A stretch of 64,000 nt of DNA from NCBI GenBank assembly GCA_041662625.1, contig JBAZSB010000001.1, positions 855,710 to 919,709 of the forward strand, given 5' to 3'. Made by a program: the position numbers and the translations under genes. Shown here in pieces: positions 2,659 to 58,321 of the stretch (position 1 is its first letter; every line of letters starts with the position of its first letter). Origin of the DNA: Patescibacteria group bacterium (GTDB lineage: Bacteria > Patescibacteriota > Patescibacteriia > Buchananbacterales > UBA6539). The notes below the pieces were generated by a model. It was not told where the DNA came from. It worked only from the letters and a program-made list of their open reading frames with translations, and ran no database searches.

Positions 2659-3078
2659 ATGAAAAAGAACCTCTTAACTTTTTTCGGCCTGATTATTATC
2701 ACTAGTCTATTAACTTTGGTCCTAGTCCCCGTTCCGGTTTTGGCTGACGAAGAAATTGGCGATTTGATTGAGAATCAAATGGAGCCGATTCAAAATATTT
2801 ACGGCCAAGAGCAGGTTTCACCGGATACCTTTGCCGTTGCGGTGGCAAAAATTATTTCGATTGTGCTGGGATTTTTAGGCATTATCTTTTTAGTCTTAAT
2901 GATTTATGCTGGTTTCACCTGGATGACAGCAGCCGGTAATGAAGAAAGTATAACGAGAGCAAAAAAAACCATGATCGCCGCCGTCATTGGCGTGGCCATT
3001 GTTTTAGTGGCCTACGCCATCACTGTCTTTGTGATTAATTCTTTGCTAGAAGCTACAGGCGCCGAAGGATTTGAATAA
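2659..3078 (+). CDS. TrbC/VirB2-like small membrane protein, paralog 7
   Basis: Core IYAGFTWMTAAGNEESITRAKK..VIGVAIVLVAYAITVFVI. Confidence 0.55.
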   Translation: MKKNLLTFFGLIIITSLLTLVLVPVPVLADEEIGDLIENQMEPIQNIYGQEQVSPDTFAVAVAKIISIVLGFLGIIFLVLMIYAGFTWMTAAGNEESITRAKKTMIAAVIGVAIVLVAYAITVFVINSLLEATGAEGFE

Positions 3079-3101
3079 ACTAAAATCAATAATTTGTTTT
3101 A

Positions 3102-3128
3102 TCCCGACTTCGTGTCGGGATTTTTTTT
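3102..3128 (+). terminator. Rho-independent terminator ending the paralog array
   Basis: TCCCGAC-ttcgt-GTCGGGA 7-bp stem followed by T8. Confidence 0.7.
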
Positions 3129-3131
3129 AGA

Positions 3132-3240
3132 TTAACCCCCACACCTATTCCACCTATTAAATTTATATTTAAATAATCTTTTAGTAAATAAATAAATTAT
3201 CGATTCAGATGCTAATTAGCAAAATAGGTGTGGGGGTTAA
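3132..3240. mobile_element. 109-bp MITE-like element with perfect 18-bp terminal inverted repeats
   Basis: TTAACCCCCACACCTATT at 3132-3149 and its exact reverse complement at 3223-3240. The core is AT-rich. The element is flanked by TTAA, which could be a target-site duplication or part of the TIR. Confidence 0.5.
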
Positions 3241-3279
3241 TGCCTTGTTTTTGCCCCAAAGGCAAGGTAAAATAACTAC

Positions 3280-5235
3280 ATGAAAAAAGAAAGCTTAATT
3301 AATCATTTTATTACCAAAAAAAGTCGATGGGTAATAATTTTAGCCATCATTTTTTATCTTGTTTTATTTGGCTTTATCAGTCTTTGGAAATATTACAACT
3401 TTGGTTATAACGCCTTAGACTTAGCCATCATTAACCAGGTTTTTTATAATTCAAGCCAGGGGAATTTCTTTGCTTCCAGTATCCATCCGCCAACATACCT
3501 GGGTGATCATTTCTCACCGATTTTATTTCTGCTTCTGCCTTTTTATTGGCTTTGGCGCTCCCCGCAAATTTTGTTGATTTTTCAAACTCTTATTTTAGCC
3601 GCTTGCAGTTGGCCATTATACCTAATCACCAAAAAAGTGCTGGGACAAAGCTGGGCTCTTGGGTTAGTTTTAATCTGGCTACTTAATCCCTTTGTCCAAA
3701 ACATCAATTTGTTCGAATTCCACTTTTTGGCTTTGGGCATCTTTTTTATTTTTTGGGCTTTTTATTTTTACCAAAACAAAAATTTATTTGCTTATTTACT
3801 TATTTGCCTGCTGGCGCTAATGGTTCGGGAGGATTTAGCCCTAGTAATTATACTGTTTGGCCTGGTTGCTTTCTTGGAAAAACGGGGATGGCGCTGGTGG
3901 CTTGTAACAATTCTCCTGAGCGGGCTTTATTTTATAGCGGCTTTAAAAATTACCAGTTTTTTTGCTCCTGGGGAACAATATAAATTCTTAATTTACTATT
4001 CCTGGCTGGGCCAAACTCCGGCCCAAGCCCTGAATCACCTGGTTTTCCAACCCTGGCTTGTCATTCAGCAATTATTCAGATTTAATAATATAATCTTTAC
4101 TTTGGCACTTTTTTTACCCTGGGTATTTCTGCCTCTAATCAATCCTTTTTATCTTTTGCTAGGTTTAGGAATCTTTCTCCAATTGACACTGGGAAGTGGC
4201 GGCGGCTCCACCACAATTTTAGATACTTACTATTCAAGTCTGCTTTTACCGCCAATTTTTATTGCTGCCATTTATTCCTTAAAAAAAATTATTGATAATA
4301 AGTCAGATATTAGCCAAAAAATCCAAAATTATCGAGGGCTAGTCGGCTTAATTTTTGTTACTGGCATTATTTATTCCACCCTAACCCTTGGGCCAATTGT
4401 TGGCAGTCTGAATAAAATTTTTCAAACTGGCTTAATCTCCCCAACCAGCCAAAGTAAAAAAGAATTTATCGAAAAAATTCCTCCTGATGCGGCCGTGGCT
4501 ACAACTTACGATTTTTTGGCTCCCCTTTCTTCCCGGACAAACCTTTATTCATTTAATTACATTTTTTTGGGTAAACAACAATTCCTAACCAAAGACTATG
4601 CCCTACCAGATGACACCAAGTATTTGCTGATTGATTACAATGATTTCATCACTTACCAACTTCAGTATGGTAAAAATTTATTTTATCAGGCTCAATACCA
4701 AAAAGCAGCAAAAAATTGGCCAAAAACGCTATTAGGTTTTGGCCTAGTAGAAATCAAAGATAGCTTGGCTTTATACCAAAAAGGAGTAGCGGATAAATTC
4801 TCCTTAGTGGAAGTGCTACCAGAAATTCCTGCGGGGCTAAAAACAAAAAATTTGGTAATTACACCTGAAATAAAATTTATTGGTTTTAAAAAAATTGACA
4901 TGCAGTACCAACTATTCTGGGAAATCAATTTACCATTAACAAAAGATTACCAGCTTAACCTGTCCTTAGGCGGTGATGGAATCACTGAGACAAAGACTTA
5001 CCCTTTTGCTTATAATTTACTACAAACCGATAACTTGGGGGGTCAAACTATAATTCAAACCAACTATTGGCCAGATTTTATCAAAAAAGTCCCAAGCGGG
5101 ACCTATAATTTAAAAATTGATTTATCTGAAATTCAAGCGGGCGGGATTGAAGTCGATCAAATCCGATCAACGAAAAATGTAGTGGACCGAGAAAAGTTAA
5201 TTGGCGAAGTTTTAATTGGTCCAATTAATCTTTGA
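3280..5235 (+). CDS. Integral membrane protein (DUF2079-like N-terminal multi-TM domain) with a C-terminal extracytoplasmic domain
   Basis: 651 aa. The N-terminal 330 aa are polytopic. YYNFGYNALDLAIINQVFYNSS is reminiscent of DUF2079-family proteins that accompany GT clusters. Confidence 0.4.
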   Translation: MKKESLINHFITKKSRWVIILAIIFYLVLFGFISLWKYYNFGYNALDLAIINQVFYNSSQGNFFASSIHPPTYLGDHFSPILFLLLPFYWLWRSPQILLIFQTLILAACSWPLYLITKKVLGQSWALGLVLIWLLNPFVQNINLFEFHFLALGIFFIFWAFYFYQNKNLFAYLLICLLALMVREDLALVIILFGLVAFLEKRGWRWWLVTILLSGLYFIAALKITSFFAPGEQYKFLIYYSWLGQTPAQALNHLVFQPWLVIQQLFRFNNIIFTLALFLPWVFLPLINPFYLLLGLGIFLQLTLGSGGGSTTILDTYYSSLLLPPIFIAAIYSLKKIIDNKSDISQKIQNYRGLVGLIFVTGIIYSTLTLGPIVGSLNKIFQTGLISPTSQSKKEFIEKIPPDAAVATTYDFLAPLSSRTNLYSFNYIFLGKQQFLTKDYALPDDTKYLLIDYNDFITYQLQYGKNLFYQAQYQKAAKNWPKTLLGFGLVEIKDSLALYQKGVADKFSLVEVLPEIPAGLKTKNLVITPEIKFIGFKKIDMQYQLFWEINLPLTKDYQLNLSLGGDGITETKTYPFAYNLLQTDNLGGQTIIQTNYWPDFIKKVPSGTYNLKIDLSEIQAGGIEVDQIRSTKNVVDREKLIGEVLIGPINL

Positions 5236-37663: not shown

Positions 37664-38818
37664 TTATTGTTTGATCGGCATGATGATATAAAGATAATCA
37701 CTACCTTTACCTGCTGGTTTTAGAACACAAGGACTGCTGCTATCAATCACACTAACTTCCACTTGTTCAGTACTAATATTTTGTAGCCCATCTAAAAGAT
37801 AACGATAATTAATAACGATGCTGTTATTGTCACCAGACAGTTCCCCACCCAGCCGAGAAATATTTTCTCCCAGTTGATTATTGGCTGAAGAAATAGTGAC
37901 TTCTTTTTTTTCTGGATTAACTTCTAAACTAACATCATAAATTCCGCTGCGGGTAAAAAGACTGGTGGTTTTGGTGGCGGCAATAAATTCCGAAACACTT
38001 AAAGTCGCTTTGGTGTTAGATTGCTGGGGAATAATTTGTTGGTAATCGGGATACTGGCCTTCCACCAAGCGAGAAATTAATTCGATATTTCCTAAAATAA
38101 ATAAAATTTGATTTTCCGCCAGATAAATTTCCACTTCTTCAATTTCGGAAATTGCCGCCGGGTCTTTAAAACTCCCTAAAATCCGCTGGAGTTCCTGCAA
38201 GGTCCGGGTGGGGACAATTACTCTTTGGGGAATACTGCTTGATTTTTTGGCTAAACTGACTGATTTTTCCGCTAACCGATAACTATCGGTAGCCGCTAAA
38301 ACTAAAGAATTACCCACAAAATTAAACAAGACCCCGTTAATTTCCGGCCGGGTTTCACTGATTGAAACGGCAAAAATTACCTGGTTAATTGCCTGGCGTA
38401 ATTTTTGGCTGGATAAAACATAGGGATTTTTTTTGTTGATCTGGGGAATTAAAGGAAAATCAGTGGCGGGCTGACCTTTAATTTTAGTTGAATTATTCTT
38501 GCAGCGAAGACTCAAACTTTGGTCCTGTCCTTCTTTGATTTCTTTTGCCACCACCAAATCAACTCGTTCTTTGGGCAGGAGCCCAACATAATCAGCTAAA
38601 AGTCGGGAGTGGATGGTAAAATCACCTTCTTCTTCCACCTTCCCCCGAATAATACAACTAACGCCAATTTCTAAATTTGTTGCCGAAAGTTTAATAGTAT
38701 TTTCTTGGGCTTGAATTAAAACGTTGTTTAAAATTGGCAAGGCCGTATTTTTTGAAGCGATATGGCTGACAACAAACAAGCCTTGATTTAAGTTTTCTTG
38801 GGTGCAGGATATTTTCAT
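37664..38818 (-). CDS. dnaN: DNA polymerase III beta sliding clamp
   Basis: MKISCTQENLNQGL ... ALPILNNVLI; 384 aa; adjacent to dnaA. Confidence 0.85.
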   Translation of the reverse strand: MKISCTQENLNQGLFVVSHIASKNTALPILNNVLIQAQENTIKLSATNLEIGVSCIIRGKVEEEGDFTIHSRLLADYVGLLPKERVDLVVAKEIKEGQDQSLSLRCKNNSTKIKGQPATDFPLIPQINKKNPYVLSSQKLRQAINQVIFAVSISETRPEINGVLFNFVGNSLVLAATDSYRLAEKSVSLAKKSSSIPQRVIVPTRTLQELQRILGSFKDPAAISEIEEVEIYLAENQILFILGNIELISRLVEGQYPDYQQIIPQQSNTKATLSVSEFIAATKTTSLFTRSGIYDVSLEVNPEKKEVTISSANNQLGENISRLGGELSGDNNSIVINYRYLLDGLQNISTEQVEVSVIDSSSPCVLKPAGKGSDYLYIIMPIKQ

Positions 38819-39099
38819 AACTTTTAGTTTATATATTTATTAATAATATTAATAAGGGGGGTGGATAAGTGGGAAAGATTAAAATTTATTTTAATTTAGT
38901 AATTTTATTAAGGTCAAATTTTTCAAAAGTTGGGGAAAGACTTGTGAATAAGGTTGTGGTAACTTCCACCCTTATTTTCAGTTGATTTTTTTCCACCACT
39001 ACCCTTAAGTTTGTCCGGTGGGTTTTCCTAAAAGTTACCCCCACTAGCCTAAAAATTATCAACAGCTTTCAGATCCTAAAATAGCTTTTATACCCTTGA
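38819..39099. promoter_or_regulatory. Candidate oriC / DnaA-box cluster (dnaA-dnaN intergenic)
   Basis: AT-rich with DnaA-box-like 9-mers at 1 mismatch or fewer: GGTGGATAA, TGTGAATAA, TTATCAACA. Confidence 0.5.
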
Positions 39100-40464
39100 T
39101 TAGATATAAAGTTTTTCTCTAATCAGTTTGATATCCTGATTAATTTTTTCATCCTCGTCGATTGCTGTAGTGATCTTAAAGTGGGCATGCATGGCAGTGG
39201 TGTGATCGCGGTTACCAATTTCTTGGCCAATGGCTGGATAAGAGCTTCTTAATTCCTCGCGCATCAAATACATCACAATCTGTCGGGGTAAAGCCAGATT
39301 TTTTTTGCGGCAGGCACCCAACAAATCTTCTAGTTTGATATCATAAAATTCCGCCACTAAATTGATAATTTGTTTAGGGGTGACTGATTTTCTGCGTTGG
39401 CCTGAGCTAATGGAAGTTAAAACCTTTTTTATGTTGTCTAAAACCGGTTCAGTTCCATTCAACTGATGGTAAGCAATGATTCTATTCAAAGCCCCTTCCA
39501 ATTCTCTAATGTTATTTTGAATATTAGCGGCGATATAGGTAATAATTTCATCATTAAGCTGATAATTTTTCTCTTTACATTTAGTCTTTAAAATTGCGGC
39601 CCGGGTTTCCAGGTCAGGAGCCGAGATATCAGCAATCATTCCCCATTCAAAGCGAGAGACCAAGCGGCTTTCCAGGGCCGGGATGGCCTTCGGTGGCCGA
39701 TCGGAAGTGATTACCACTTGTTTATTGGCTTGGTGTAAGTCATTGAAAGTATAGAAAAAGGCTTCCTGGGTTCCTTCTTTACCAGCCAAGAACTGGATAT
39801 CGTCCACTAATAAAACATCAACCGAGCGATAAATATTTTTAAAATGATCAGCTCGGTTACTGGAAATTGATTTAATAAAATCATTGGTAAATTTTTCGCA
39901 AGAAACGTAAAGGACTTTCTTTTGGGGGTTGGTCTGAAGAATTTGATTGCCGATTGCTTGGATTAAATGAGTTTTACCTAAACCAACGCCGCCGTAGATA
40001 AATAAAGGATTATAGACCTGCCCTGGTTTTTGGGCCACCGCCATACTGGCCGCTTGAGCTAATTCATTACCTTTACCAATGACGAAATTATTGAAAGTAT
40101 AACGGGGGTTAAGGCCGAATTCATTAAGGGCTGGTGCTTCTGTCCCTACCGTAAGCATTACTTTAGCGGTTTTTTCCTGGATTTTTTTCTCAGTTTGTTC
40201 CTCTTCAGCTTTAAATTTCGTTTCCACTTGGTAAATAATGATTTTTATTCGATTATTGGTAATTTTTTGTAAAGCCCGAAGAATAGCAGAGTGGTACTTC
40301 TTTTCTAGCCAAGCCTTGGTAAAGGTATTAGGTACGCCAATAGTAATAGTTTCTTCTTGATAAGAAGAAATAAAGGTATTTTTGAACCAAGTAGTAAAAT
40401 TTGCTCGGCTAAGAGTCAATTCCAGTTCACCCAGAGTCGCTTGCCAAATTTTTTGCTCCTCCAT
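39100..40464 (-). CDS. dnaA: Chromosomal replication initiator DnaA
   Basis: GGVGLGKTHL (Walker A), DDIQFLAGKE, and the C-terminal DnaA signature QEIGNRDHTTAMHA. Confidence 0.95.
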   Translation of the reverse strand: MEEQKIWQATLGELELTLSRANFTTWFKNTFISSYQEETITIGVPNTFTKAWLEKKYHSAILRALQKITNNRIKIIIYQVETKFKAEEEQTEKKIQEKTAKVMLTVGTEAPALNEFGLNPRYTFNNFVIGKGNELAQAASMAVAQKPGQVYNPLFIYGGVGLGKTHLIQAIGNQILQTNPQKKVLYVSCEKFTNDFIKSISSNRADHFKNIYRSVDVLLVDDIQFLAGKEGTQEAFFYTFNDLHQANKQVVITSDRPPKAIPALESRLVSRFEWGMIADISAPDLETRAAILKTKCKEKNYQLNDEIITYIAANIQNNIRELEGALNRIIAYHQLNGTEPVLDNIKKVLTSISSGQRRKSVTPKQIINLVAEFYDIKLEDLLGACRKKNLALPRQIVMYLMREELRSSYPAIGQEIGNRDHTTAMHAHFKITTAIDEDEKINQDIKLIREKLYI

Positions 40465-41659: not shown

Positions 41660-42391
41660 ATGGCACAATTTTTCACCACAATTTTGTATCAACCCCTGCT
41701 TAATCTTTTGGTCTTTTTGTATAATATTATCCCGGGGCATGATTTGGGGTTAGCAATTATTCTTTTGACGGTTTTAATCAAACTTGTTTTATATCCCTTC
41801 GCCCGTCAGTCAATCAAGTCACAGAAAGCTTTACAAGATTTACAACCTAAAGTCGAAGCCTTAAAAAAACAATACAAAGACGACAAGGAAAAAATGGCTA
41901 AAGAGATGATGGTGCTTTATAAGGCAGAAAAAGTTAATCCCCTTTCTTCTTGCCTACCTTTGTTAATCCAGCTGCCATTTTTAATTGCAGTTTATCAAGT
42001 GTTTCGGACTGGTTTAGATTCCAGCAGCTTAAGTCTGCTTTATCCTTTTGTTCAAAACCCCGGTCAGCTTAATGCCATTTCTTTTGGTTTTCTTGATTTA
42101 GCCAAAGTAAACTTAGTTTTAGCCGGTCTAACCGGTTTGGCTCAGTTTTGGCAAACCAAAATGCTGATGGCCAAAAAGCAGCCGAAGATTGAAGGAGCCA
42201 AAGATGAAAATATGATGGCGATGATGAATAAGCAAATGCTTTATTTTATGCCGGTTTTCACCGTCATTATTGGAGCGAGTTTGCCCGCCGGGCTGGTGTT
42301 ATATTGGTTAGTAATGACGGTTCTCACCGCCTTGCAACAACTGCTAATGTTTAGACATAATAAAAAACAAGAGGCCGAAGCCAAACCATGA
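41660..42391 (+). CDS. yidC: YidC/Oxa1-family membrane protein insertase (short form)
   Basis: GLAIILLTVLIKLVLYPF ... VNPLSSCLPLLIQLPFLIAVYQVF. Confidence 0.9.
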   Translation: MAQFFTTILYQPLLNLLVFLYNIIPGHDLGLAIILLTVLIKLVLYPFARQSIKSQKALQDLQPKVEALKKQYKDDKEKMAKEMMVLYKAEKVNPLSSCLPLLIQLPFLIAVYQVFRTGLDSSSLSLLYPFVQNPGQLNAISFGFLDLAKVNLVLAGLTGLAQFWQTKMLMAKKQPKIEGAKDENMMAMMNKQMLYFMPVFTVIIGASLPAGLVLYWLVMTVLTALQQLLMFRHNKKQEAEAKP

Positions 42392-45702: not shown

Positions 45703-47274
45703 TTACCGTCTGGCTTTGTGGGCAGAGGCAATCTCTTCCATACGGGCTCGCAGGGAGCCAGCATCCCGGGCCGGAGCGGCCTGGGAGCGTTCATTGTGGT
45801 GGGAGCGGCCGTTGCCGCCTTTGTGGTCCTGCCGTTGGGGGCGAGTCCGGGGGCGGTCGTCGTGATGCTGGTCGCGGCGTTGGCTGATTTTCACCTGGCG
45901 GCGAACAGCGCAGCAGCGGGGCAGACCCAGCCAGTACATCGGGCAGGTACCACCCGACTGGTCTGGCAGGCGGCACATCCTGCCAGTGGCGCACTGCTCT
46001 TGGCCCCGATGCCACTTGGTCTCATCCAAGGCCAAGGTGATTGCCGCCACGATCTCCTGGGTCGTCAGCAGGGTGGGCTCCACCTCTGGGTGGCTCAGGG
46101 AGCCATTCAGGAGGTTGATGCCGATTGTGATAACGATTGGACCCTTGCCGCGGCGGACCGTGATTTCCTTCTTGGGGTAATGCCAGGCCGGGGCGTCATC
46201 GATCGTGCCTTCGGCAGAGAGGTCTTGCCAGTCTTGGAAGGTGGCCTGCGTCATCTTGCCGGTCCTGATGCGGGCTGCAATCTCGTAGTAGCGGATGGCC
46301 CGGACTACGCTATCGAAGTCGATGTGGCGGTTCCGGCGGTAGAAGATCTGGGTCTGACCGCCTTGCCACCGCATTACCACGATATCGGCCTCGTCGCCAT
46401 ATTTGCTCATGGCCGCACTCGGCATCTGGGCTGCCAACTGCGCCAAAGGCGAGAGCTGATCGCCACGAGGCATGGGTTCGGGCAGCTCGATCACGACGAG
46501 CCGGTACATCAGTCGAACCCACTGGTCTTCACCCTTGGTACGCTTCTTGACCATTGGGCCGGGGATCTCGGCGACTTTGCTGGCCAACTCGCGGTACTTG
46601 CTGACCACTTGGGTCATGAAAGACTCTCGTTGACCGAGATGGGTTGTCAGTAGGAACCGGCCGATTCTGATCGCGGCCAGGGATCCGAACTGACGACCCG
46701 TGCCTTTGCCCATGGCACTCGGTCCAAGCGGATTGCGGTCGCCATTCCGGTCTTCCCACTGGATGTACCCCAGCATGCGGGTGAATACCGGGTCATCCTT
46801 GATACCAAGGATTCCCGCCATCAGACTGGTGGCGCACTCGTGGCGAAATCCGCTCTGGTGTTCGTCCACCGGTCCCTTGGCGATTCCGATCGGCAAAGTG
46901 CCTTCGTGGAGGTGGGCTTCGATGGGCCGACTGTCCGGGGTTTCTTGCGCCGTACCCCAGAATTGAATCAGGTCTGGATCCTTCCTGCCTTTTGTCTTCC
47001 CGCCATCATCAAGGGCCATTTTGATCAGCTTTTCGATGCCCGGGAATACCACCTCTCCCCGATGCTCAAGGAGCACAAGGGCTCCAACTTCGTCAAGGTG
47101 AGGAAAGTGGTGGGTGGCAAGCCGTTTTACCAGCTTACCTTTCCCGCTCGGGTGGGGGGGGAGGAGATCAAGCAAAGCTTGCATCCTTTTCACCTGCTCC
47201 TGATAAGCCGGTGGCTTGCCCCTCTCACTTGTTGCTGCCGGTGTTACTTTCGGTGCTGTGGTGCTTGCTACCAT
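45703..47274 (-). CDS. Hypothetical 523-aa protein on a high-GC (about 60%) foreign island
   Basis: SD AAAGGAGCGGAACC upstream of the ATG; a 10-bp GC hairpin terminator at 45649-45679; strong GC contrast with the flanks; basic disordered C-terminus. Confidence 0.5.
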   Translation of the reverse strand: MVASTTAPKVTPAATSERGKPPAYQEQVKRMQALLDLLPPHPSGKGKLVKRLATHHFPHLDEVGALVLLEHRGEVVFPGIEKLIKMALDDGGKTKGRKDPDLIQFWGTAQETPDSRPIEAHLHEGTLPIGIAKGPVDEHQSGFRHECATSLMAGILGIKDDPVFTRMLGYIQWEDRNGDRNPLGPSAMGKGTGRQFGSLAAIRIGRFLLTTHLGQRESFMTQVVSKYRELASKVAEIPGPMVKKRTKGEDQWVRLMYRLVVIELPEPMPRGDQLSPLAQLAAQMPSAAMSKYGDEADIVVMRWQGGQTQIFYRRNRHIDFDSVVRAIRYYEIAARIRTGKMTQATFQDWQDLSAEGTIDDAPAWHYPKKEITVRRGKGPIVITIGINLLNGSLSHPEVEPTLLTTQEIVAAITLALDETKWHRGQEQCATGRMCRLPDQSGGTCPMYWLGLPRCCAVRRQVKISQRRDQHHDDRPRTRPQRQDHKGGNGRSHHNERSQAAPARDAGSLRARMEEIASAHKARR

Positions 47275-50463: not shown

Positions 50464-50811
50464 TCAGCCCACTTGTCTAATCCTCCGCAGCAAAGCTTGG
50501 GGGTGATAGGGCTTCCAGACGATAGCCTGCACTCCGGCTTGCTGACAACGATCGGCCAGCGATCTATCCACCCCTTTATCTAGGGTGACAATCACTGGAT
50601 AGTTCGGCCAGGCTGCCTTGACTAGTTCCAGGTTACCAATACCTTGGTCATCCGGAACGTGTAGGACTATGACCGTTGGTCCGTCAGTCGTCAGGTTAAC
50701 ATCACTGACTTTCTGGTTCAGCGAAACCGGAAAACCCGCCGCCTGAAGGGTATTGGCCACGCCACCCAGACTAAGGCTTTCGCCAATGAACACTACTTTT
50801 GGTTTTTCCAT
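50464..50811 (-). CDS. Stand-alone degenerate receiver (REC-like) domain protein, high GC
   Basis: Matches the REC pattern around VIVLHVPDDQGIG and KPY, but the N-terminal acidic pair is replaced (FIGES). A terminator hairpin on the minus strand at 50405-50440. Confidence 0.4.
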   Translation of the reverse strand: MEKPKVVFIGESLSLGGVANTLQAAGFPVSLNQKVSDVNLTTDGPTVIVLHVPDDQGIGNLELVKAAWPNYPVIVTLDKGVDRSLADRCQQAGVQAIVWKPYHPQALLRRIRQVG

Positions 50812-50832: not shown

Positions 50833-51801
50833 TTAGTTCGGGATCAGCCCCAGTTCGTCCAGCACCCGCTTCAGAATCGCAGTGTTGGCCGGTTGCATCG
50901 GGACCAGCGGTAGTCTGAAACAGGCTTTCTCGATCACTTTCCTCTGGGCAAGAGCCTCTTTCACGCCCAACGGGTTGGTCTCGATGAAAAGACCTCCTTT
51001 ACCGAAGAGTGTTTCCAGTCGGTGGTGGATGGCAAAGCCAGCCGCTCGGTCATCACATATTTGGCCGTTAGCCGCAGCGAAGTGGTCAACCATAACCTTG
51101 ACTTGGTCAGTGATGCAGGATGCGACTGAAATCACACCGTTGCAGTCGCCAGTCGCCATGACTTGAGCCGTGATGCCGTCATCACCAGACCAGATGACAA
51201 AGTCCGCTGGGCATTGTTTCCGTAAGGCAGCGAAGCGAGCCGGGTCACCTTCAGCTTCTTTGTGGCCGATGTAATGGGGGAATTCCCGAGCCAGTTCGAC
51301 AATCACCTCGACTGGAATGGGTCCGCCGCCGGTCCGTGCCGAAACCGAGTAGCTGATGAAGGGGATACCGAGTTTGGCGATGGCTCGGAAATGCGCCAGC
51401 ACACCCTCCGGCGTGGGGTTGTTGTAGTACGGCTTTACGATCAAAACCGCATTGGCGCCAGCTTCGGCCGCTCTCCTGGTTAGCCAGATCGCCTCCTTGG
51501 TGCTGTTGGCACCAGTGCCAGCGATAACCGGAACGCGACCGTCGACCGTACCGATGGTCCAGGAAATGTAGGCGAGTTGTTCTTCATGACTCATGGTCGC
51601 CGGCTCGCCCGTGGTGCCGGCCGCCAGGATGGCGTCGTTGCGGCATGGGTCGATGAGATGGTCAATCAGTTTGGCCTGCTGCGCAAAATCGATTGGCGCA
51701 TCATCTGGTCCCAAGCCATTACTGGCATAGACCGTGGGCATTGCTGGGATACAGCGCAAAGCCCTGGCTGTCTTTCTGGTCAGTAGCTCATGTGGTTTCA
51801 T
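50833..51801 (-). CDS. DapA/NAL-family class I aldolase (dihydrodipicolinate-synthase-like), high GC
   Basis: AAGTTGE, YYN, IGHKEAEG (Schiff-base Lys region); GC about 58%. Confidence 0.6.
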   Translation of the reverse strand: MKPHELLTRKTARALRCIPAMPTVYASNGLGPDDAPIDFAQQAKLIDHLIDPCRNDAILAAGTTGEPATMSHEEQLAYISWTIGTVDGRVPVIAGTGANSTKEAIWLTRRAAEAGANAVLIVKPYYNNPTPEGVLAHFRAIAKLGIPFISYSVSARTGGGPIPVEVIVELAREFPHYIGHKEAEGDPARFAALRKQCPADFVIWSGDDGITAQVMATGDCNGVISVASCITDQVKVMVDHFAAANGQICDDRAAGFAIHHRLETLFGKGGLFIETNPLGVKEALAQRKVIEKACFRLPLVPMQPANTAILKRVLDELGLIPN

Positions 51802-55146: not shown

Positions 55147-55656
55147 ATGTTAAAAATCAGACTTGCCAGAATTGGCAAAAAGAAAAAACCAACTTACCGC
55201 TTTATTGTTTCCGAAGCCGGCCGAGATACTTATGGCAAAGCTTTGGAGATTTTGGGTTCTTATAATCCATTTTCCAAAGTCTGCGACGTCAAAAAAGACC
55301 GGATTTTGTACTGGATTTCTAAAGGTGCTCAAGCTTCACCAACCGCCCACAATCTGTTAGTTGACCAAAATGTGATTAGTGGTGCCAAACTAAAAGCTTC
55401 CAAGGGTGGCAAAAAGAAAGACGCGGAAGTAGCCGCGGAAAAAAACGCAGAAGGAAACGCGCCTTTCGACTCCGCTCAAGGCGCCTCGAGCGCAGTCGAG
55501 ATGGCGGAAAGTAAAGCTGAAGTTAAGGTAGCCGCGGAAACCGCGGAAAAGCCTGCCGAAAAAGTTGCAGAAAATACAGAAGTCAAAGTGGAAGAAAAGA
55601 AAGAAGAAAAGGTGGAAGAGAAAACTGAAGCTAAACCGGCTGAACCAGCAGCTTAG
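55147..55656 (+). CDS. rpsP: 30S ribosomal protein S16 with a KAE-rich C-terminal extension
   Basis: MLKIRLARIGKKKKPTYRFIVSE ... ILGSYNP ... ILYWISKGAQ. Confidence 0.9.
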   Translation: MLKIRLARIGKKKKPTYRFIVSEAGRDTYGKALEILGSYNPFSKVCDVKKDRILYWISKGAQASPTAHNLLVDQNVISGAKLKASKGGKKKDAEVAAEKNAEGNAPFDSAQGASSAVEMAESKAEVKVAAETAEKPAEKVAENTEVKVEEKKEEKVEEKTEAKPAEPAA

Positions 55657-55754
55657 CAAAAACATTTCATTAAATTGAAGGCGGCATCTTGCGATGCTGT
55701 CTTTTTTTAGTCTCGTTTGACATTATTATTAGTCGTGCTAAGATAGGAATATGA

Positions 55755-55877
55755 CCCGGTAGTGATCCCCCCACTTTTATATGTGGGATCACAAACGGGT
55801 GAGATATAAAAAATTATAATTAATATTATTAATAGATAACTCCCATAATTAAAAAAGTGGGGGGGACTACTACCGGG
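55755..55877. mobile_element. 123-bp MITE, family C copy A, with 24-bp TIRs and a TATGA target duplication
   Basis: CCCGGTAGTGATCCCCCCACTTTT ... AAAAGTGGGGGGGACTACTACCGGG; flanked by TATGA on both sides. Confidence 0.8.
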
Positions 55878-56003
55878 TATGAAAATTAACCTTAGCCAAA
55901 ATTCAAGCTGGTCAAATGGTTCAAGCTCAAGCAGTTCATCATGCTGCCGCTTTTTTGGTGGAAGGTTAATTTCTGGCTAAATCATAGACCAATTCAGATA
56001 GAA

Positions 56004-56033
56004 ACCAACCTTTCACCAGAAAGGTTGTTTGTT
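56004..56033 (+). terminator. Rho-independent terminator ahead of the serA cassette
   Basis: AACCTTTC-acca-GAAAGGTT followed by a T-run. Confidence 0.6.
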
Positions 56034-56076
56034 TTTTAGGGAGGAATAGTTCTTCAACAAACAAGGAGTTGGTGCC

Positions 56077-57384
56077 ATGACGAGAAGAATAGAAGGAAGG
56101 GCAGTATTACTGCTCGACAATATTGGCCCGGAGGCTGTACCAATCCTGGAGCAAGTGGGTGTCAGAGTCATTGATGCCAAGCGAGGTTTTGACAAAGATG
56201 CTGAAGCTGCTTTGTGTCAGTACATTACCGTGAATTTCCAAACCGGCGAATTAGCTGCCATCTGCCTGCGTAGTTCGACTACACTGGGAGCAGCGATCAT
56301 GCCGTTTCTGCGAGAAATGGGCGTCGAACTCATTGTCCGGTTTGGCTCAGGAACGGATAACATTGATGAGACAGCCGCCAGTGAAGTCGGGATCATCGTG
56401 GAGAACACGGCTGGCCAGAATGCCAATGGCGTAGCCGAGCTCGTGCCCGCTTTCATGGTTGCCTTGACTCGAAATGTTGATAAGGCCATCAAGGCGATGC
56501 TTGCCCGAGAAATATTGCCCAAGCTGTTGGCTGCTAGAGCACAGTTGAGCGATTGCCCGAGTGCTATTGATGAGCTGGTCACCCAGTTGCAAGGTTATGC
56601 TAAGGCTGAGAAGACCGGCTTTAAGGGTACCGAGATCGAAGGCAAGACGGTAGGCATCATCGGCTTGGGCCGAATTGGCTCAAAGGTAGCCAGAAAACTG
56701 CTCGGTATGGGGATGAAGGTTTTGGCTTATGACCCGAAATCCGAGCTGGAAATTACTGGTGTCACTCGAGTTGAACTGGCAACGCTTCTGGCCGAGTCAG
56801 ACTTCATCACCATCCACGCCAGTGGCAGCCAGCAGTTGATTGGTCAAGAAGAGATTCAGCAGATGGCAAAAAGACCATATCTGTTTAACCTCGCGCGGCG
56901 TGGGGTCGTGGATTTGGCGGCAGTTATGGCGGCACTGCAGGCCGATCAACTAGCCGGCTTTGCGTCAGACCTGGACGATCCGGCACATCCCGTATTTGGT
57001 TTGGCTCATACGATCATCACGCCTCACATCGGTGCCACCACTAAAGAGTCAGAAGCACGCTGTGCTCAAGTAGGTGCTCAACACGTGGTCGACTGGCTGA
57101 CTGACGGTTTCATCTGTGATGGCGTCAATATTCCGGACACGGCTATCAAGCGACGTCAGAATGGCCGGTTGGTGGTCTTGAACCGGAATGAGCCGGGAGC
57201 ACTTGGCGCAGTTACTGACTGCGTGAGAGATCGAGGCCTCAATATTCATTCCTTGGCGAATGAAGGTCGGGAACGGGGTGGACTGGCCTACACCGTCATG
57301 GACCTAGATGATCCTTTTGGTGAAGACCTGATTGCTGCCCTGGCAGCGTTGCCTCAGGTCGTGAGGGTTATTGGTTTGAAGTAA
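56077..57384 (+). CDS. serA: D-3-phosphoglycerate dehydrogenase-like 2-hydroxyacid dehydrogenase with a C-terminal ACT domain, high GC
   Basis: GIIGLGRIGSKVA NAD-binding motif, catalytic-domain pattern, C-terminal ACT (RLVVLNRNEPGALGAV); SD AAGGAG; GC about 55%. Confidence 0.75.
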   Translation: MTRRIEGRAVLLLDNIGPEAVPILEQVGVRVIDAKRGFDKDAEAALCQYITVNFQTGELAAICLRSSTTLGAAIMPFLREMGVELIVRFGSGTDNIDETAASEVGIIVENTAGQNANGVAELVPAFMVALTRNVDKAIKAMLAREILPKLLAARAQLSDCPSAIDELVTQLQGYAKAEKTGFKGTEIEGKTVGIIGLGRIGSKVARKLLGMGMKVLAYDPKSELEITGVTRVELATLLAESDFITIHASGSQQLIGQEEIQQMAKRPYLFNLARRGVVDLAAVMAALQADQLAGFASDLDDPAHPVFGLAHTIITPHIGATTKESEARCAQVGAQHVVDWLTDGFICDGVNIPDTAIKRRQNGRLVVLNRNEPGALGAVTDCVRDRGLNIHSLANEGRERGGLAYTVMDLDDPFGEDLIAALAALPQVVRVIGLK

Positions 57385-57411
57385 CCTGGCGTAAGCTAGA
57401 GTTCTTAGTTC

Positions 57412-57444
57412 GCCTCTGTCTTTAACCGGACAGAGGCATTTTTT
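57412..57444 (+). terminator. Rho-independent terminator of serA
   Basis: GCCTCTGTC-tttaaccg-GACAGAGGC followed by T7. Confidence 0.75.
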
Positions 57445-57517
57445 TAATATTTTTTTGCTTTAATATTTGTTTGTAATTTCCTGGATTAATTTTTTACAAA
57501 TTGGCAAGGCGGGTTGA

Positions 57518-57639
57518 CCCGGTAGTGATCCCCCCACTTTTATATGTGGGATCACAAACGGGTGAGATATAAAAAATTATAATTAATATTATTAATAGAT
57601 AACTCCCATAATTAAAAAAGTGGGGGGACTACTACCGGG
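57518..57639. mobile_element. MITE, family C copy B, with a TTGA target duplication
   Basis: Differs from copy A only by a one-base G-run length; flanked by (G)TTGA on both sides. Confidence 0.8.
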
Positions 57640-57668
57640 TTGACAAAGCTATTATTTGTTGTATAATA
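57640..57668 (+). promoter_or_regulatory. Sigma-70-like promoter of khpA
   Basis: TTGACA-17 bp-TATAAT; the -35 box incorporates the MITE target duplication. Confidence 0.55.
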
Positions 57669-57807
57669 TTTTAAGTTCCTCAAAACAGGAACTGGTACCA
57701 GACTGTTTTTCAGCAACCTCTCGGTTGCCTGGAAGGTCGGCAGACTGGTTGTTAATGTAAGTAATTCATTCCGACTTTCTTGAGTCGGAGTGACACGGTA
57801 TTGTTCT

Positions 57808-58122
57808 ATGGCAGCAAAAGAAGCTGATCAAGAGTTTGTCGAACACCTTGTCAAAGCCATTGTGGCTAACCCAAGTGATGTGAAGACAGAACGAACAGTT
57901 GACGAGATGGGAGTATTAATTACTCTTCATCTAAACCCATCAGACATGGGCTATGTCATTGGCCGCCAAGGCCAAACTGCTCGGGCAATCCGCACCCTCC
58001 TTAAAATTGTTGGTGCTAAACACAATGCCCGGGTCAACCTCAAAATTCATGAACCTGAAGGTTCAAGACGAGGCCGAGCTGCTGAAGCTGATACTTCAGT
58101 AGTCGACGATTTAAAAATCTAA
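57808..58122 (+). CDS. khpA: KH-domain RNA-binding protein (KhpA/YlqC, UPF0109)
   Basis: GYVIGRQGQTARAIRTLLKIVGAKHNARVNLKI; ATG at 57808 preferred (the track start at 57790 is GTG). Confidence 0.75.
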   Translation: MAAKEADQEFVEHLVKAIVANPSDVKTERTVDEMGVLITLHLNPSDMGYVIGRQGQTARAIRTLLKIVGAKHNARVNLKIHEPEGSRRGRAAEADTSVVDDLKI

Positions 58123-58321
58123 CTAGGATTTTCCCCCCTCACCTTCTGCACGTCATCAAACTAATTGACCAAGTTTTTCAAGAGTTTGCATCAATTAGTT
58201 TATGAAGATAATGATGGATAGAAGGTGAGGGGGGTTTGTTTACCAAAAGTTAGACAAAAGTGGCGATAATTGTTAAATTTAAGTATATAAGTCTATTTAA
58301 AATAGCTCTGTTTCATAGAAT

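Follow-up and report, generated by a model that had tools for sequence, protein, structure and literature searches.

Several families of miniature inverted-repeat transposable elements (MITEs) are known from bacteria, among them the Correia or NEMIS elements of Neisseria, which duplicate TA, the ERIC or IRU elements of enterobacteria and the RUP elements of Streptococcus pneumoniae. The classical leader-peptide attenuators (trpL, hisL, leuL, thrL, ilvL and pheL) have been reviewed (PMC1183508) and surveyed (PMC2965389). In mycobacteria, leaderless polycysteine short open reading frames (ORFs) are reported to control the translation of downstream, pathway-related genes by unmasking a ribosome-binding site (Canestrari et al., 10.1101/834739). 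For serA, the only form of control found in the literature searched is the T-box of Paenibacillus polymyxa (PMC8002221), and a serine leader peptide for serA was not found there, the survey in PMC2965389 included. Here, we describe a locus in a 64,000-nucleotide stretch of a Patescibacteria group bacterium (assembly GCA_041662625.1, contig JBAZSB010000001.1, positions 855,710 to 919,709; hereafter the window, whose own numbering is used throughout, with features on the + strand unless stated otherwise). A gene for a SerA-like dehydrogenase lies in it between rpsP and khpA, preceded by a serine-rich leader and accompanied by two copies of a 123-nt element. We consider it likely that this is a native unit with a serine-sensing leader attenuator that was hit recently by two mobile copies.

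The native character of the unit is apparent from its relatives. The order of ribosomal protein S16 (the product of rpsP), dehydrogenase and KhpA recurs in ten sister Patescibacteria loci (L008, L010/L011, L012, L013, L092, L093/L094, L095, L096 and L097), as far as their contigs reach, and one of them, L012, has a wider PolA-DapA-SMC-S16 synteny in common with the window. The sister dehydrogenases are 42-73% identical to that of the window, the nearest being L097 at 73%; the closest homologues in the initial search were only 42-48% identical. The dehydrogenase is an old resident of the position between rpsP and khpA and predates the divergence of these Patescibacteria lineages. The 123-nt element, whole or as a fragment, is absent from all ten loci.

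The promoter of the dehydrogenase unit (55717-55744) consists of TTGACA (55717-55722), a 16-nt spacer and TAAGAT (55739-55744), with TG before the −10 box and a match of 10/12. An alignment of the spacer between S16 and the dehydrogenase gives its form in the sisters as TTGACA-16-TAGAAT and places the −10 box exactly 6 nt before the ATG of a small ORF in 8 of 9 genomes. Because of this distance, we infer that transcription would start at or next to the ATG, which in the window puts the start near position 55751, the A of the original ATG, and that the leader mRNA would be leaderless.

In the window, the leader ORF now runs from 55879 to 55980 and comprises 33 codons, MKINLSQNSSWSNGSSSSSSSCCRFFGGRLISG followed by the stop, 12 of them for Ser and two for Cys; MKTYYLSSSSSCSGCSSSTYFGARLISG and MKTNLHQIWSCSCSCSCSGSQTGGRFIFA are further examples of the peptide. 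Across nine genomes the ORF has 28-33 codons; its indels come solely in multiples of 3, and it ends at an invariant TAA. Serine takes up 73 of 268 codons in these ORFs (27% pooled and 21-36% in each ORF, versus 5.4% in the long ORFs of the window; P = 6e-31), and cysteine 17 of 268 (6% versus a background of 0.7%; P = 9e-12). Both the number and the choice of Ser codons vary among genomes, and the last Ser or Cys codon always stands 10-11 codons ahead of the stop. Since the Ser/Cys enrichment is extreme while the Ser codons vary, sensing at the level of codons accounts for the ORF better than a conserved peptide would. The ORF is not annotated by NCBI, where the accessions of S16 and the dehydrogenase are consecutive. 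The leader ORF of the window also holds a 5-pair hairpin at 55931-55947, GCAGTTCATCATGCTGC followed by CGCTTTTTTG, which is not obviously conserved in the sisters and could be a pause site or a weak terminator.

Downstream, the leader can adopt two structures. A candidate antiterminator hairpin identified with RNAalifold (55956-56018) has a 5′ arm at 55956-55983, which holds the stop codon of the leader ORF at an invariant position, and a 3′ arm at 55991-56018. In the alignment, 94.9% of its cells are paired, versus 37-56% in controls with the partners shifted by 1-3 columns, and six pairs show compensatory changes, such as the replacement of GGUGG/CCACC by GGCGG/CCGCC in two lineages. With energies of −19 to −30 kcal/mol, the hairpin is predicted to form in 8/8 sequences and to be more stable than the terminator in all eight. 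The attenuator terminator (56006-56037, stem 56006-56027) reads CAACCTTTC-ACCA-GAAAGGTTG and then TTTGTTTTTT; its 5′ arm shares sequence with the antiterminator 3′ arm, and the two structures are mutually exclusive. A terminator stem with a U run is present in all eight leaders tested, with covarying stem positions, and is also visible in L097.

This layout apparently senses serine. In the proposed mechanism, the promoter would fire onto the ATG of the Ser/Cys-rich ORF, and the leader would act as a ribosome-mediated transcription attenuator. With seryl-tRNA plentiful, the ribosome would reach the TAA and mask the 5′ arm of the antiterminator; the terminator would then fold and end transcription ahead of the dehydrogenase. 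A shortage of seryl-tRNA, and perhaps of cysteinyl-tRNA, would make the ribosome stall within the Ser/Cys block, upon which the antiterminator would form and the dehydrogenase would be transcribed. Additionally, a conserved TTCTTC upstream of the dehydrogenase (56048-56068) can pair with its Shine-Dalgarno sequence in a helix of 5 pairs, one of which shows a compensatory change, and which may point to an additional level of control, at translation. The Shine-Dalgarno sequence itself, AAGGAG at 56063-56068, is read from the sequence, and the 5-pair helix is predicted in the alignment.

The strongest rival to ribosome-mediated sensing is that a ligand or a protein acts on the hairpin and terminator, the small ORF being either incidental or the source of a functional small peptide. 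Both hairpin arms are indeed nearly invariant, unpaired positions such as GATAGAAA included, and the leader peptides share a conserved C-terminal FGGRLIF as well as conserved Trp, Asn and Gln positions near the N terminus. Nevertheless, the reading frame is maintained by in-frame indels, the ATG is held 6 nt from the −10 box, and the invariant TAA lies inside the very arm that has to be masked; the conservation of the C terminus is explained by the overlap of RNA and coding constraints, and the extreme enrichment in Ser and Cys goes along with Ser codons that differ in identity and number. A search of Rfam, at the gathering threshold across the window and at E ≤ 10 across 55600-58200, produced no match on the dehydrogenase leader to any family, riboswitches and T-boxes included. 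A T-box leader, considered as a candidate in its own right, was rejected on the same lack of an Rfam match and because no Stem I is present. We regard control by a ligand or protein as improbable.

The gene downstream of the leader (56077-57384) encodes a D-2-hydroxyacid dehydrogenase of 435 amino acids with a C-terminal ACT domain (PF00389, PF02826 and PF22629; MFA6255268.1), and is followed by an intrinsic terminator with a 10-pair stem and a T run (57412-57437). The top matches in the Protein Data Bank (PDB) are all D-3-phosphoglycerate dehydrogenases, and the best NCBIfam matches are two phosphoglycerate dehydrogenase models, both under cut-off. The layout is that of the E. coli type, the match spanning positions 141-406 of a 410-position E. 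coli-type model. Since the score falls below both curated cut-offs, we call the protein SerA-like. The serine-rich leader argues independently, if circumstantially, that the enzyme takes part in serine synthesis.

The unit of the window differs from those of its sisters in the presence of the element. Copy 1 (55755-55877, 123 nt) and copy 2 (57518-57639, 122 nt) have the same orientation, lie 1.76 kb apart and differ solely in a run of G residues, G7 in the former versus G6 in the latter. Terminal inverted repeats of ~24 nt (22/24 complementary, the two mismatches being those between GTGATC and GTAGTC; 28 nt at 89% by a second measure) enclose an AT-rich core, and no ORF of at least 50 amino acids overlaps either copy. 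Three occurrences of the 20-nt terminus were counted in the window, versus 0.00 expected (none in 100 shuffles). Copy 1 is bounded by a 5-nt duplication, TATGA at 55750-55754, which is read from the sequence and holds the original 5′-terminal ATG, and TATGA at 55878-55882, which contains the ATG of the present leader ORF. Copy 2 is bounded by a 4-nt duplication, TTGA at 57514-57517, likewise read from the sequence, and the TTGA that begins the khpA promoter. The segment bounded by the repeats has a left outer flank of TATGA and a right one of TTGAC, which do not match.

Because the duplications pair within each copy and not across the outer flanks, the repeats are best understood as independent insertions of a small, non-autonomous, MITE-like element with terminal inverted repeats, an interpretation that the empty site supports. 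Removal of copy 1 and one TATGA from site 1 leaves TAAGAT-AGGAAT-ATGAAAATTAACC, which is identical at every base to the arrangement in the sisters, where a −10 box is followed by six bases and ATGAAAATT. In the sisters, including the closest one, L097, a single TATGA or ATGA stands at the homologous point and the site is uninterrupted. Structurally, the element has the marks of a MITE: inverted termini, a target duplication confirmed by the empty site, a lack of coding capacity and a difference between strains (see below). Its insertions are recent. An earlier note, made from the letters of this DNA, had described two near-identical repeats with terminal inverted repeats and their own duplications, and had taken them for independent insertions of a non-autonomous transposon; the lengths of 123 and 122 nt, the G7 and G6 runs, the ~24-nt termini and the TATGA and TTGA duplications bear out the first statement, and the duplication specific to each copy, the empty site 1 of the sisters and the strain difference at site 2 the second. 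It was also right that the TTGA duplication regenerates the −35 box of the khpA promoter, which is intact as TTGACA and conserved in the clade.

Both copies are located at promoters. Copy 1 interrupts the leader ORF after 4 nt, and copy 2 lies on the −35 box of khpA, where the duplication leaves TTGACA unbroken. As RNA, copy 1 is predicted to fold into a hairpin of −50.7 kcal/mol. The ATG proximal to the promoter now opens a 3-codon ORF, ATG ACC CGG TAG, and the ATG of the leader ORF lies one base past the element hairpin and lacks a Shine-Dalgarno sequence at the usual spacing. In the proposed mechanism, the element inserted twice and independently, copy 1 with TATGA and copy 2 with TTGA, and copy 1 would place its hairpin of about −50 kcal/mol between the promoter and the leader ORF. 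The leader would then be translated poorly, the antiterminator would form by default and the dehydrogenase would be expressed whatever the supply of serine. Serine-independent read-through in this strain is predicted because the antiterminator is the default fold and the leader would be poorly translated; we put this consequence forward tentatively, with slightly more doubt than confidence. A weak promoter-like site within the element (9/12 match) is oriented toward the leader ORF.

A second strain provides a view of the order of events. L004 (ENA), which is 99.9% identical to the window, differs from it by 10 single-nucleotide polymorphisms in the 11.4 kb upstream of site 2 and by none in the 6.3 kb downstream. 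It carries the dehydrogenase and copy 1, with both junctions of the latter, and lacks a full copy 2. Site 2 in L004 (11425-11450, homologous to window 57501-57645) reads TTGGC-GAGGGACTACTGCCGGG-TTGACA, in which the 17-nt remnant GAGGGACTACTGCCGGG matches the right terminus of the element at 15/17 positions and ends at the exact copy-2 junction; the left flank of copy 2 in the window in turn looks like this remnant minus 9 nt. Derivation of the L004 allele from that of the window by a single deletion or by microhomology slippage was rejected, as it needs 2-3 extra substitutions. One possibility is that an older insertion was cut down to one terminus, a new insertion arrived beside it and a deletion followed within the resulting palindrome; gene conversion is another. 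Taken together with the duplications and the sister layout of site 1, the presence of the gene and copy 1 in L004 in the absence of a full copy 2 shows that the gene is older than the elements, that the insertions were two separate events and that at least site 2 is still variable in the population.

A second rival holds that the repeats do not transpose at all and are a structured module, for instance an insulating hairpin, a site of RNA processing or a promoter unit, that was duplicated or recombined locally from one spacer to the other. Only two copies are known, 1.76 kb apart, in the same orientation and both at promoters, and the L004 remnant ends at precisely the same junction as copy 2. 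The searches are also in keeping with such a module, since no relatives were found in the collections searched and no transposase or further termini in the window. In detail, the 64-kb window contains no additional copy and no terminus beyond those known, and no transposase domain is present among the 30 of its 57 ORFs that were scanned. The 20-nt terminus pattern gave three single matches at chance level in genome contigs, in collections that do not contain the source genome, 76 single matches in metagenome contigs, mostly from human gut samples and none extending past the 20-mer, and 0 matches in viral contigs; a single genome match in Flavonifractor plautii suggests that the metagenome matches are of unrelated source. 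The element had no blastn match among plasmids and phages, a sensitive blastn search of the window and of the ten sister loci returned AT-rich noise only, and Rfam (gathering threshold and E ≤ 10) returned only generic long-hairpin matches, to plant miRNA precursors. For the further copies and the parent element that the earlier note proposed to look for, the genome, metagenome, viral, plasmid and phage collections scanned, which do not include the source genome, gave no relatives. Against a static module stand the 5- and 4-nt target duplications beside terminal inverted repeats, which are the signature of a transposase, and the exact recovery of the sister sequence once the element and one TATGA are taken out of site 1. 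We judge a non-transposing module to be quite improbable, and retain insertion of a mobile element.

A third rival, the one advanced in the earlier note as MITE-associated gene capture, is that a foreign serA cassette of high GC content reached the rpsP-khpA junction by means of the elements, whether these acted as a composite transposon or in some other way. In many bacteria rpsP and khpA are neighbours. The gene is bracketed by direct repeats and has a GC content of 0.53 (the note had given about 55%), above the window mean of 0.39. Some close S16 relatives lie on long contigs without a corresponding dehydrogenase match, so the gene may have entered at an earlier time. The GC content at third codon positions (GC3) of the dehydrogenase is 0.55, versus 0.31-0.43 for its neighbours. 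The same excess is nevertheless found in 4/4 sisters measured: the GC3 of the dehydrogenase is 0.67 versus ~0.57 for the neighbours in L008, 0.54 versus 0.32-0.36 in L010, 0.47 versus 0.23-0.29 in L012 and 0.39 versus 0.28-0.36 in L013. DapA, too, is GC-enriched relative to its neighbours in both the window and L012, and the lineage seems to be marked by GC offsets of individual genes.

The comparison with sister genomes, which the note had set beforehand as the check on capture, returned the same gene at the same position, without repeats and with a similar GC offset. Capture is refuted by the synteny in the sisters, the common GC excess, the pairing of the duplications within each copy, with outer flanks (TATGA versus TTGAC) that do not match, and the location of the promoter and the original leader start outside the repeat-bounded segment; the gene also occurs without a full copy 2 in L004. 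We consider capture very improbable. The description of the segment as a complete expression unit is accurate for the terminators, the Shine-Dalgarno sequence and the gene but not for the promoter and the leader start, which lie to the left of copy 1, and the upstream terminator assigned to the cassette is in fact that of the attenuator. Likewise, rpsP and khpA do flank the gene, but rimM and trmD do not follow khpA here, as an insertion in an rpsP-khpA-rimM-trmD operon had implied.

That one of the repeat copies was duplicated or misplaced in assembly is scarcely credible, for although the copies are 100% identical apart from homopolymer length and the L004 assembly shows no full copy 2, the duplications are specific to each copy and independent assemblies support 3/4 copy-flank junctions (both of copy 1 in L004, and the right junction of copy 1 together with the left junction of copy 2 in the Logan unitig L005, from a different run; the right junction of copy 2 is found in the window only), and because these three recur in independent assemblies, the observed repeats are not an assembly artefact.

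Other modes of mobility were also considered. The pattern of duplications shows that the segment neither moved as a composite, there being no duplication common to the outer flanks, nor integrated as a circle through one repeat copy in the manner of Campbell, for which the pattern is wrong. Integrons have an R″ core RYYYAAC and an R′ core GTTRRRY, and attC sites in Vibrio measure 123-126 nt; compared by eye with the consensus, the boundaries GTATGAA and GTTGACA do not fit GTTRRRY, and attC sites were rejected. A tRNA-targeted island was rejected as well, as no tRNA or tmRNA genes are present in the window.

Several points weigh against the account of a native, serine-sensing unit struck by a mobile element. 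Regarding the leader, the conservation of the hairpin arms exceeds what pairing by itself would demand, which could reflect a bound factor acting instead of, or atop, ribosome sensing; in L092, ~20 nt separate the best −10 box from the ATG; and leaderless initiation in Patescibacteria is assumed from promoter geometry alone. Regarding the enzyme, the protein scores 208.6 bits with TIGR01327 (cut-off 454) and 178.6 with NF008759 (cut-off 404), which leaves the substrate of what we call a SerA-like protein putative, and serC and serB were not found among the annotated window ORFs (about half of 57). Regarding the element, everything searchable has yielded two copies and one terminus-like remnant, with no transposase partner, so that the case for mobility depends on its inverted termini, its target duplications, the empty site and the difference between strains; the site-2 allele of L004 is not a clean empty site and not a simple deletion either; and the promoter-like site within the element could partly restore expression.

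Upstream of the unit, rpsP (55147-55656; PF00886, E = 3e-15; MFA6255267.1) encodes an S16 of 169 amino acids with a C-terminal extension of ~90 residues rich in Lys, Glu and Ala; the sister S16 proteins have similarly variable tails, with lengths of 123-192 amino acids. The gene is followed by an intrinsic terminator consisting of a 12-pair stem and a T run (55677-55704). Exact-protein look-ups of S16 and KhpA returned the same second assembly alone.

Downstream, the khpA promoter (57640-57667), TTGACA-16-TATAAT, is a 12/12 match that is conserved in the sisters, and its first four bases are the right TTGA of the copy-2 duplication. It is followed by a 5′ region (57668-57807) with a core of GTACCAGACTG ... 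AGGTCGGCAG(T)ACTGGT ... AATGTAAG arranged around a hairpin of variable length. This region, ~140 nt long, is conserved in nine genomes (the window, L008, L010, L012, L013, L092, L094, L095 and L096), among which the hairpin varies from ~10 to ~90 nt, and an 11-pair closing helix is predicted that is too conserved for covariation. Rfam gave no match on the region at the gathering threshold or at E ≤ 10. It may be an autoregulatory site for KhpA, the KH-domain RNA-binding protein of 104 amino acids encoded at 57808-58122 (PF13083, E = 1e-22; gene call from L004). A signal recognition particle RNA was rejected for this leader, which has a loose resemblance to GGAAGG..GCAG and no model match. The 5′ part of the khpA leader differs in L013 (~3372-3395), L094 (~1825-1850) and L095 (~1515-1540), where it starts with ATGGCTAA(A/G)AAGTG(C/T)GG(A/G), reading MAKKCG; because the differences are synonymous, another small ORF is suggested in these three leaders.

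The spacers around the dehydrogenase seem to gather insertions repeatedly. In L013, an enlarged spacer (2745-3533) holds ACGAAT-rich repeats and an unrelated 43-nt direct repeat (2792-2834 and 3010-3052), and in L092 two enlarged spacers (1417-2378 and 3706-4455) contain extra small ORFs of 84 and 74 amino acids. Elsewhere in the window, a GC-rich ORF on the − strand (45703-47274; 523 amino acids, 61% GC, GC3 0.71) belongs to no Pfam or NCBIfam family, and 50464-50811 and 50833-51801, both also on the − strand, hold further GC-rich genes, namely a 115-amino-acid ORF (53% GC) and dapA (57%). The presence of dnaN and dnaA (37664-40464 on the − strand and 41660-42391 on the + strand), with yidC nearby, and a minimum of the cumulative GC skew at ~37-38 kb indicate that the window probably spans the replication origin.

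The object of greatest interest at this locus is the conserved, serine-rich and apparently leaderless attenuator that copy 1 disrupts. Such a device, which has gone unannotated, implies that some Patescibacteria adjust an amino-acid pathway to tRNA charging, in a group that is usually pictured as metabolically passive and in which serine regulation of this kind is apparently undescribed. In a more far-reaching version, no ribosome-mediated attenuator that senses an amino acid would have been described in Patescibacteria before it, nor one for serine in any organism; it would work through a leaderless small ORF and have been cut off from its promoter by a promoter-seeking element so that expression became independent of serine, with the site-2 allele of L004 recording repeated hits. 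We think this version unlikely as a whole; if true, metabolic control in a reduced genome would have been rewired naturally and recently. Together, the element-bearing strain and its element-free relatives amount to a natural mutant series for leaderless attenuation, and the element adds a MITE-like family to a phylum in which such elements are barely documented. The gene carries a caution as well: read as captured, a native gene would be mislabelled as horizontally acquired, and GC-rich, repeat-flanked genes in small genomes can be old residents whose offset in composition is conserved, as it is in the relatives measured.

Compared with known systems, we rate the element as an orphan of a known kind and the leader as a previously unannotated, serine version of a known kind of attenuator. 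The element resembles bacterial MITEs in its size within 100-160 nt, terminal inverted repeats of ~25 nt, AT-rich non-coding core and short duplications, and in its intergenic, promoter-proximal location, where it would be co-transcribed as a long hairpin and could alter the expression of a neighbour. It differs from Correia elements in its duplication of 5 or 4 nt (TATGA, TTGA) in place of TA, and from bacterial MITEs in general in having no sequence match to anything searched, in its two copies plus a remnant and in its host, a member of the Patescibacteria with a genome of ~0.92 Mb. The unit as a whole looks like a composite transposon or an integron cassette in that one gene lies between ~120-nt direct repeats with imperfect internal symmetry, but it has no common outer duplication and its gene is native in relatives.

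The leader shares with attenuators of the trp and his type a short ORF rich in codons of the pathway, a terminator before a biosynthetic gene and an alternative hairpin with a common arm. Unlike the classical cases, it uses Ser codons, together with Cys, in an apparently leaderless ORF of a Patescibacteria lineage, has no clear region 1:2 pause hairpin and is predicted to read through by default when it is not translated. With the mycobacterial polycysteine ORFs, as reported, it has in common a leaderless arrangement, stalling that would be specific to an amino acid and enrichment in Cys; it departs from them in its terminator/antiterminator pair, which would act on transcription, and in the dominance of Ser over Cys. 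The serA T-box has the same class of target gene and likewise attenuates transcription according to the charging of the cognate tRNA. The T-box, however, senses uncharged tRNA directly, by means of Stem I and the T-box sequence, whereas the leader described here has ~75 coding nt upstream of its hairpin.

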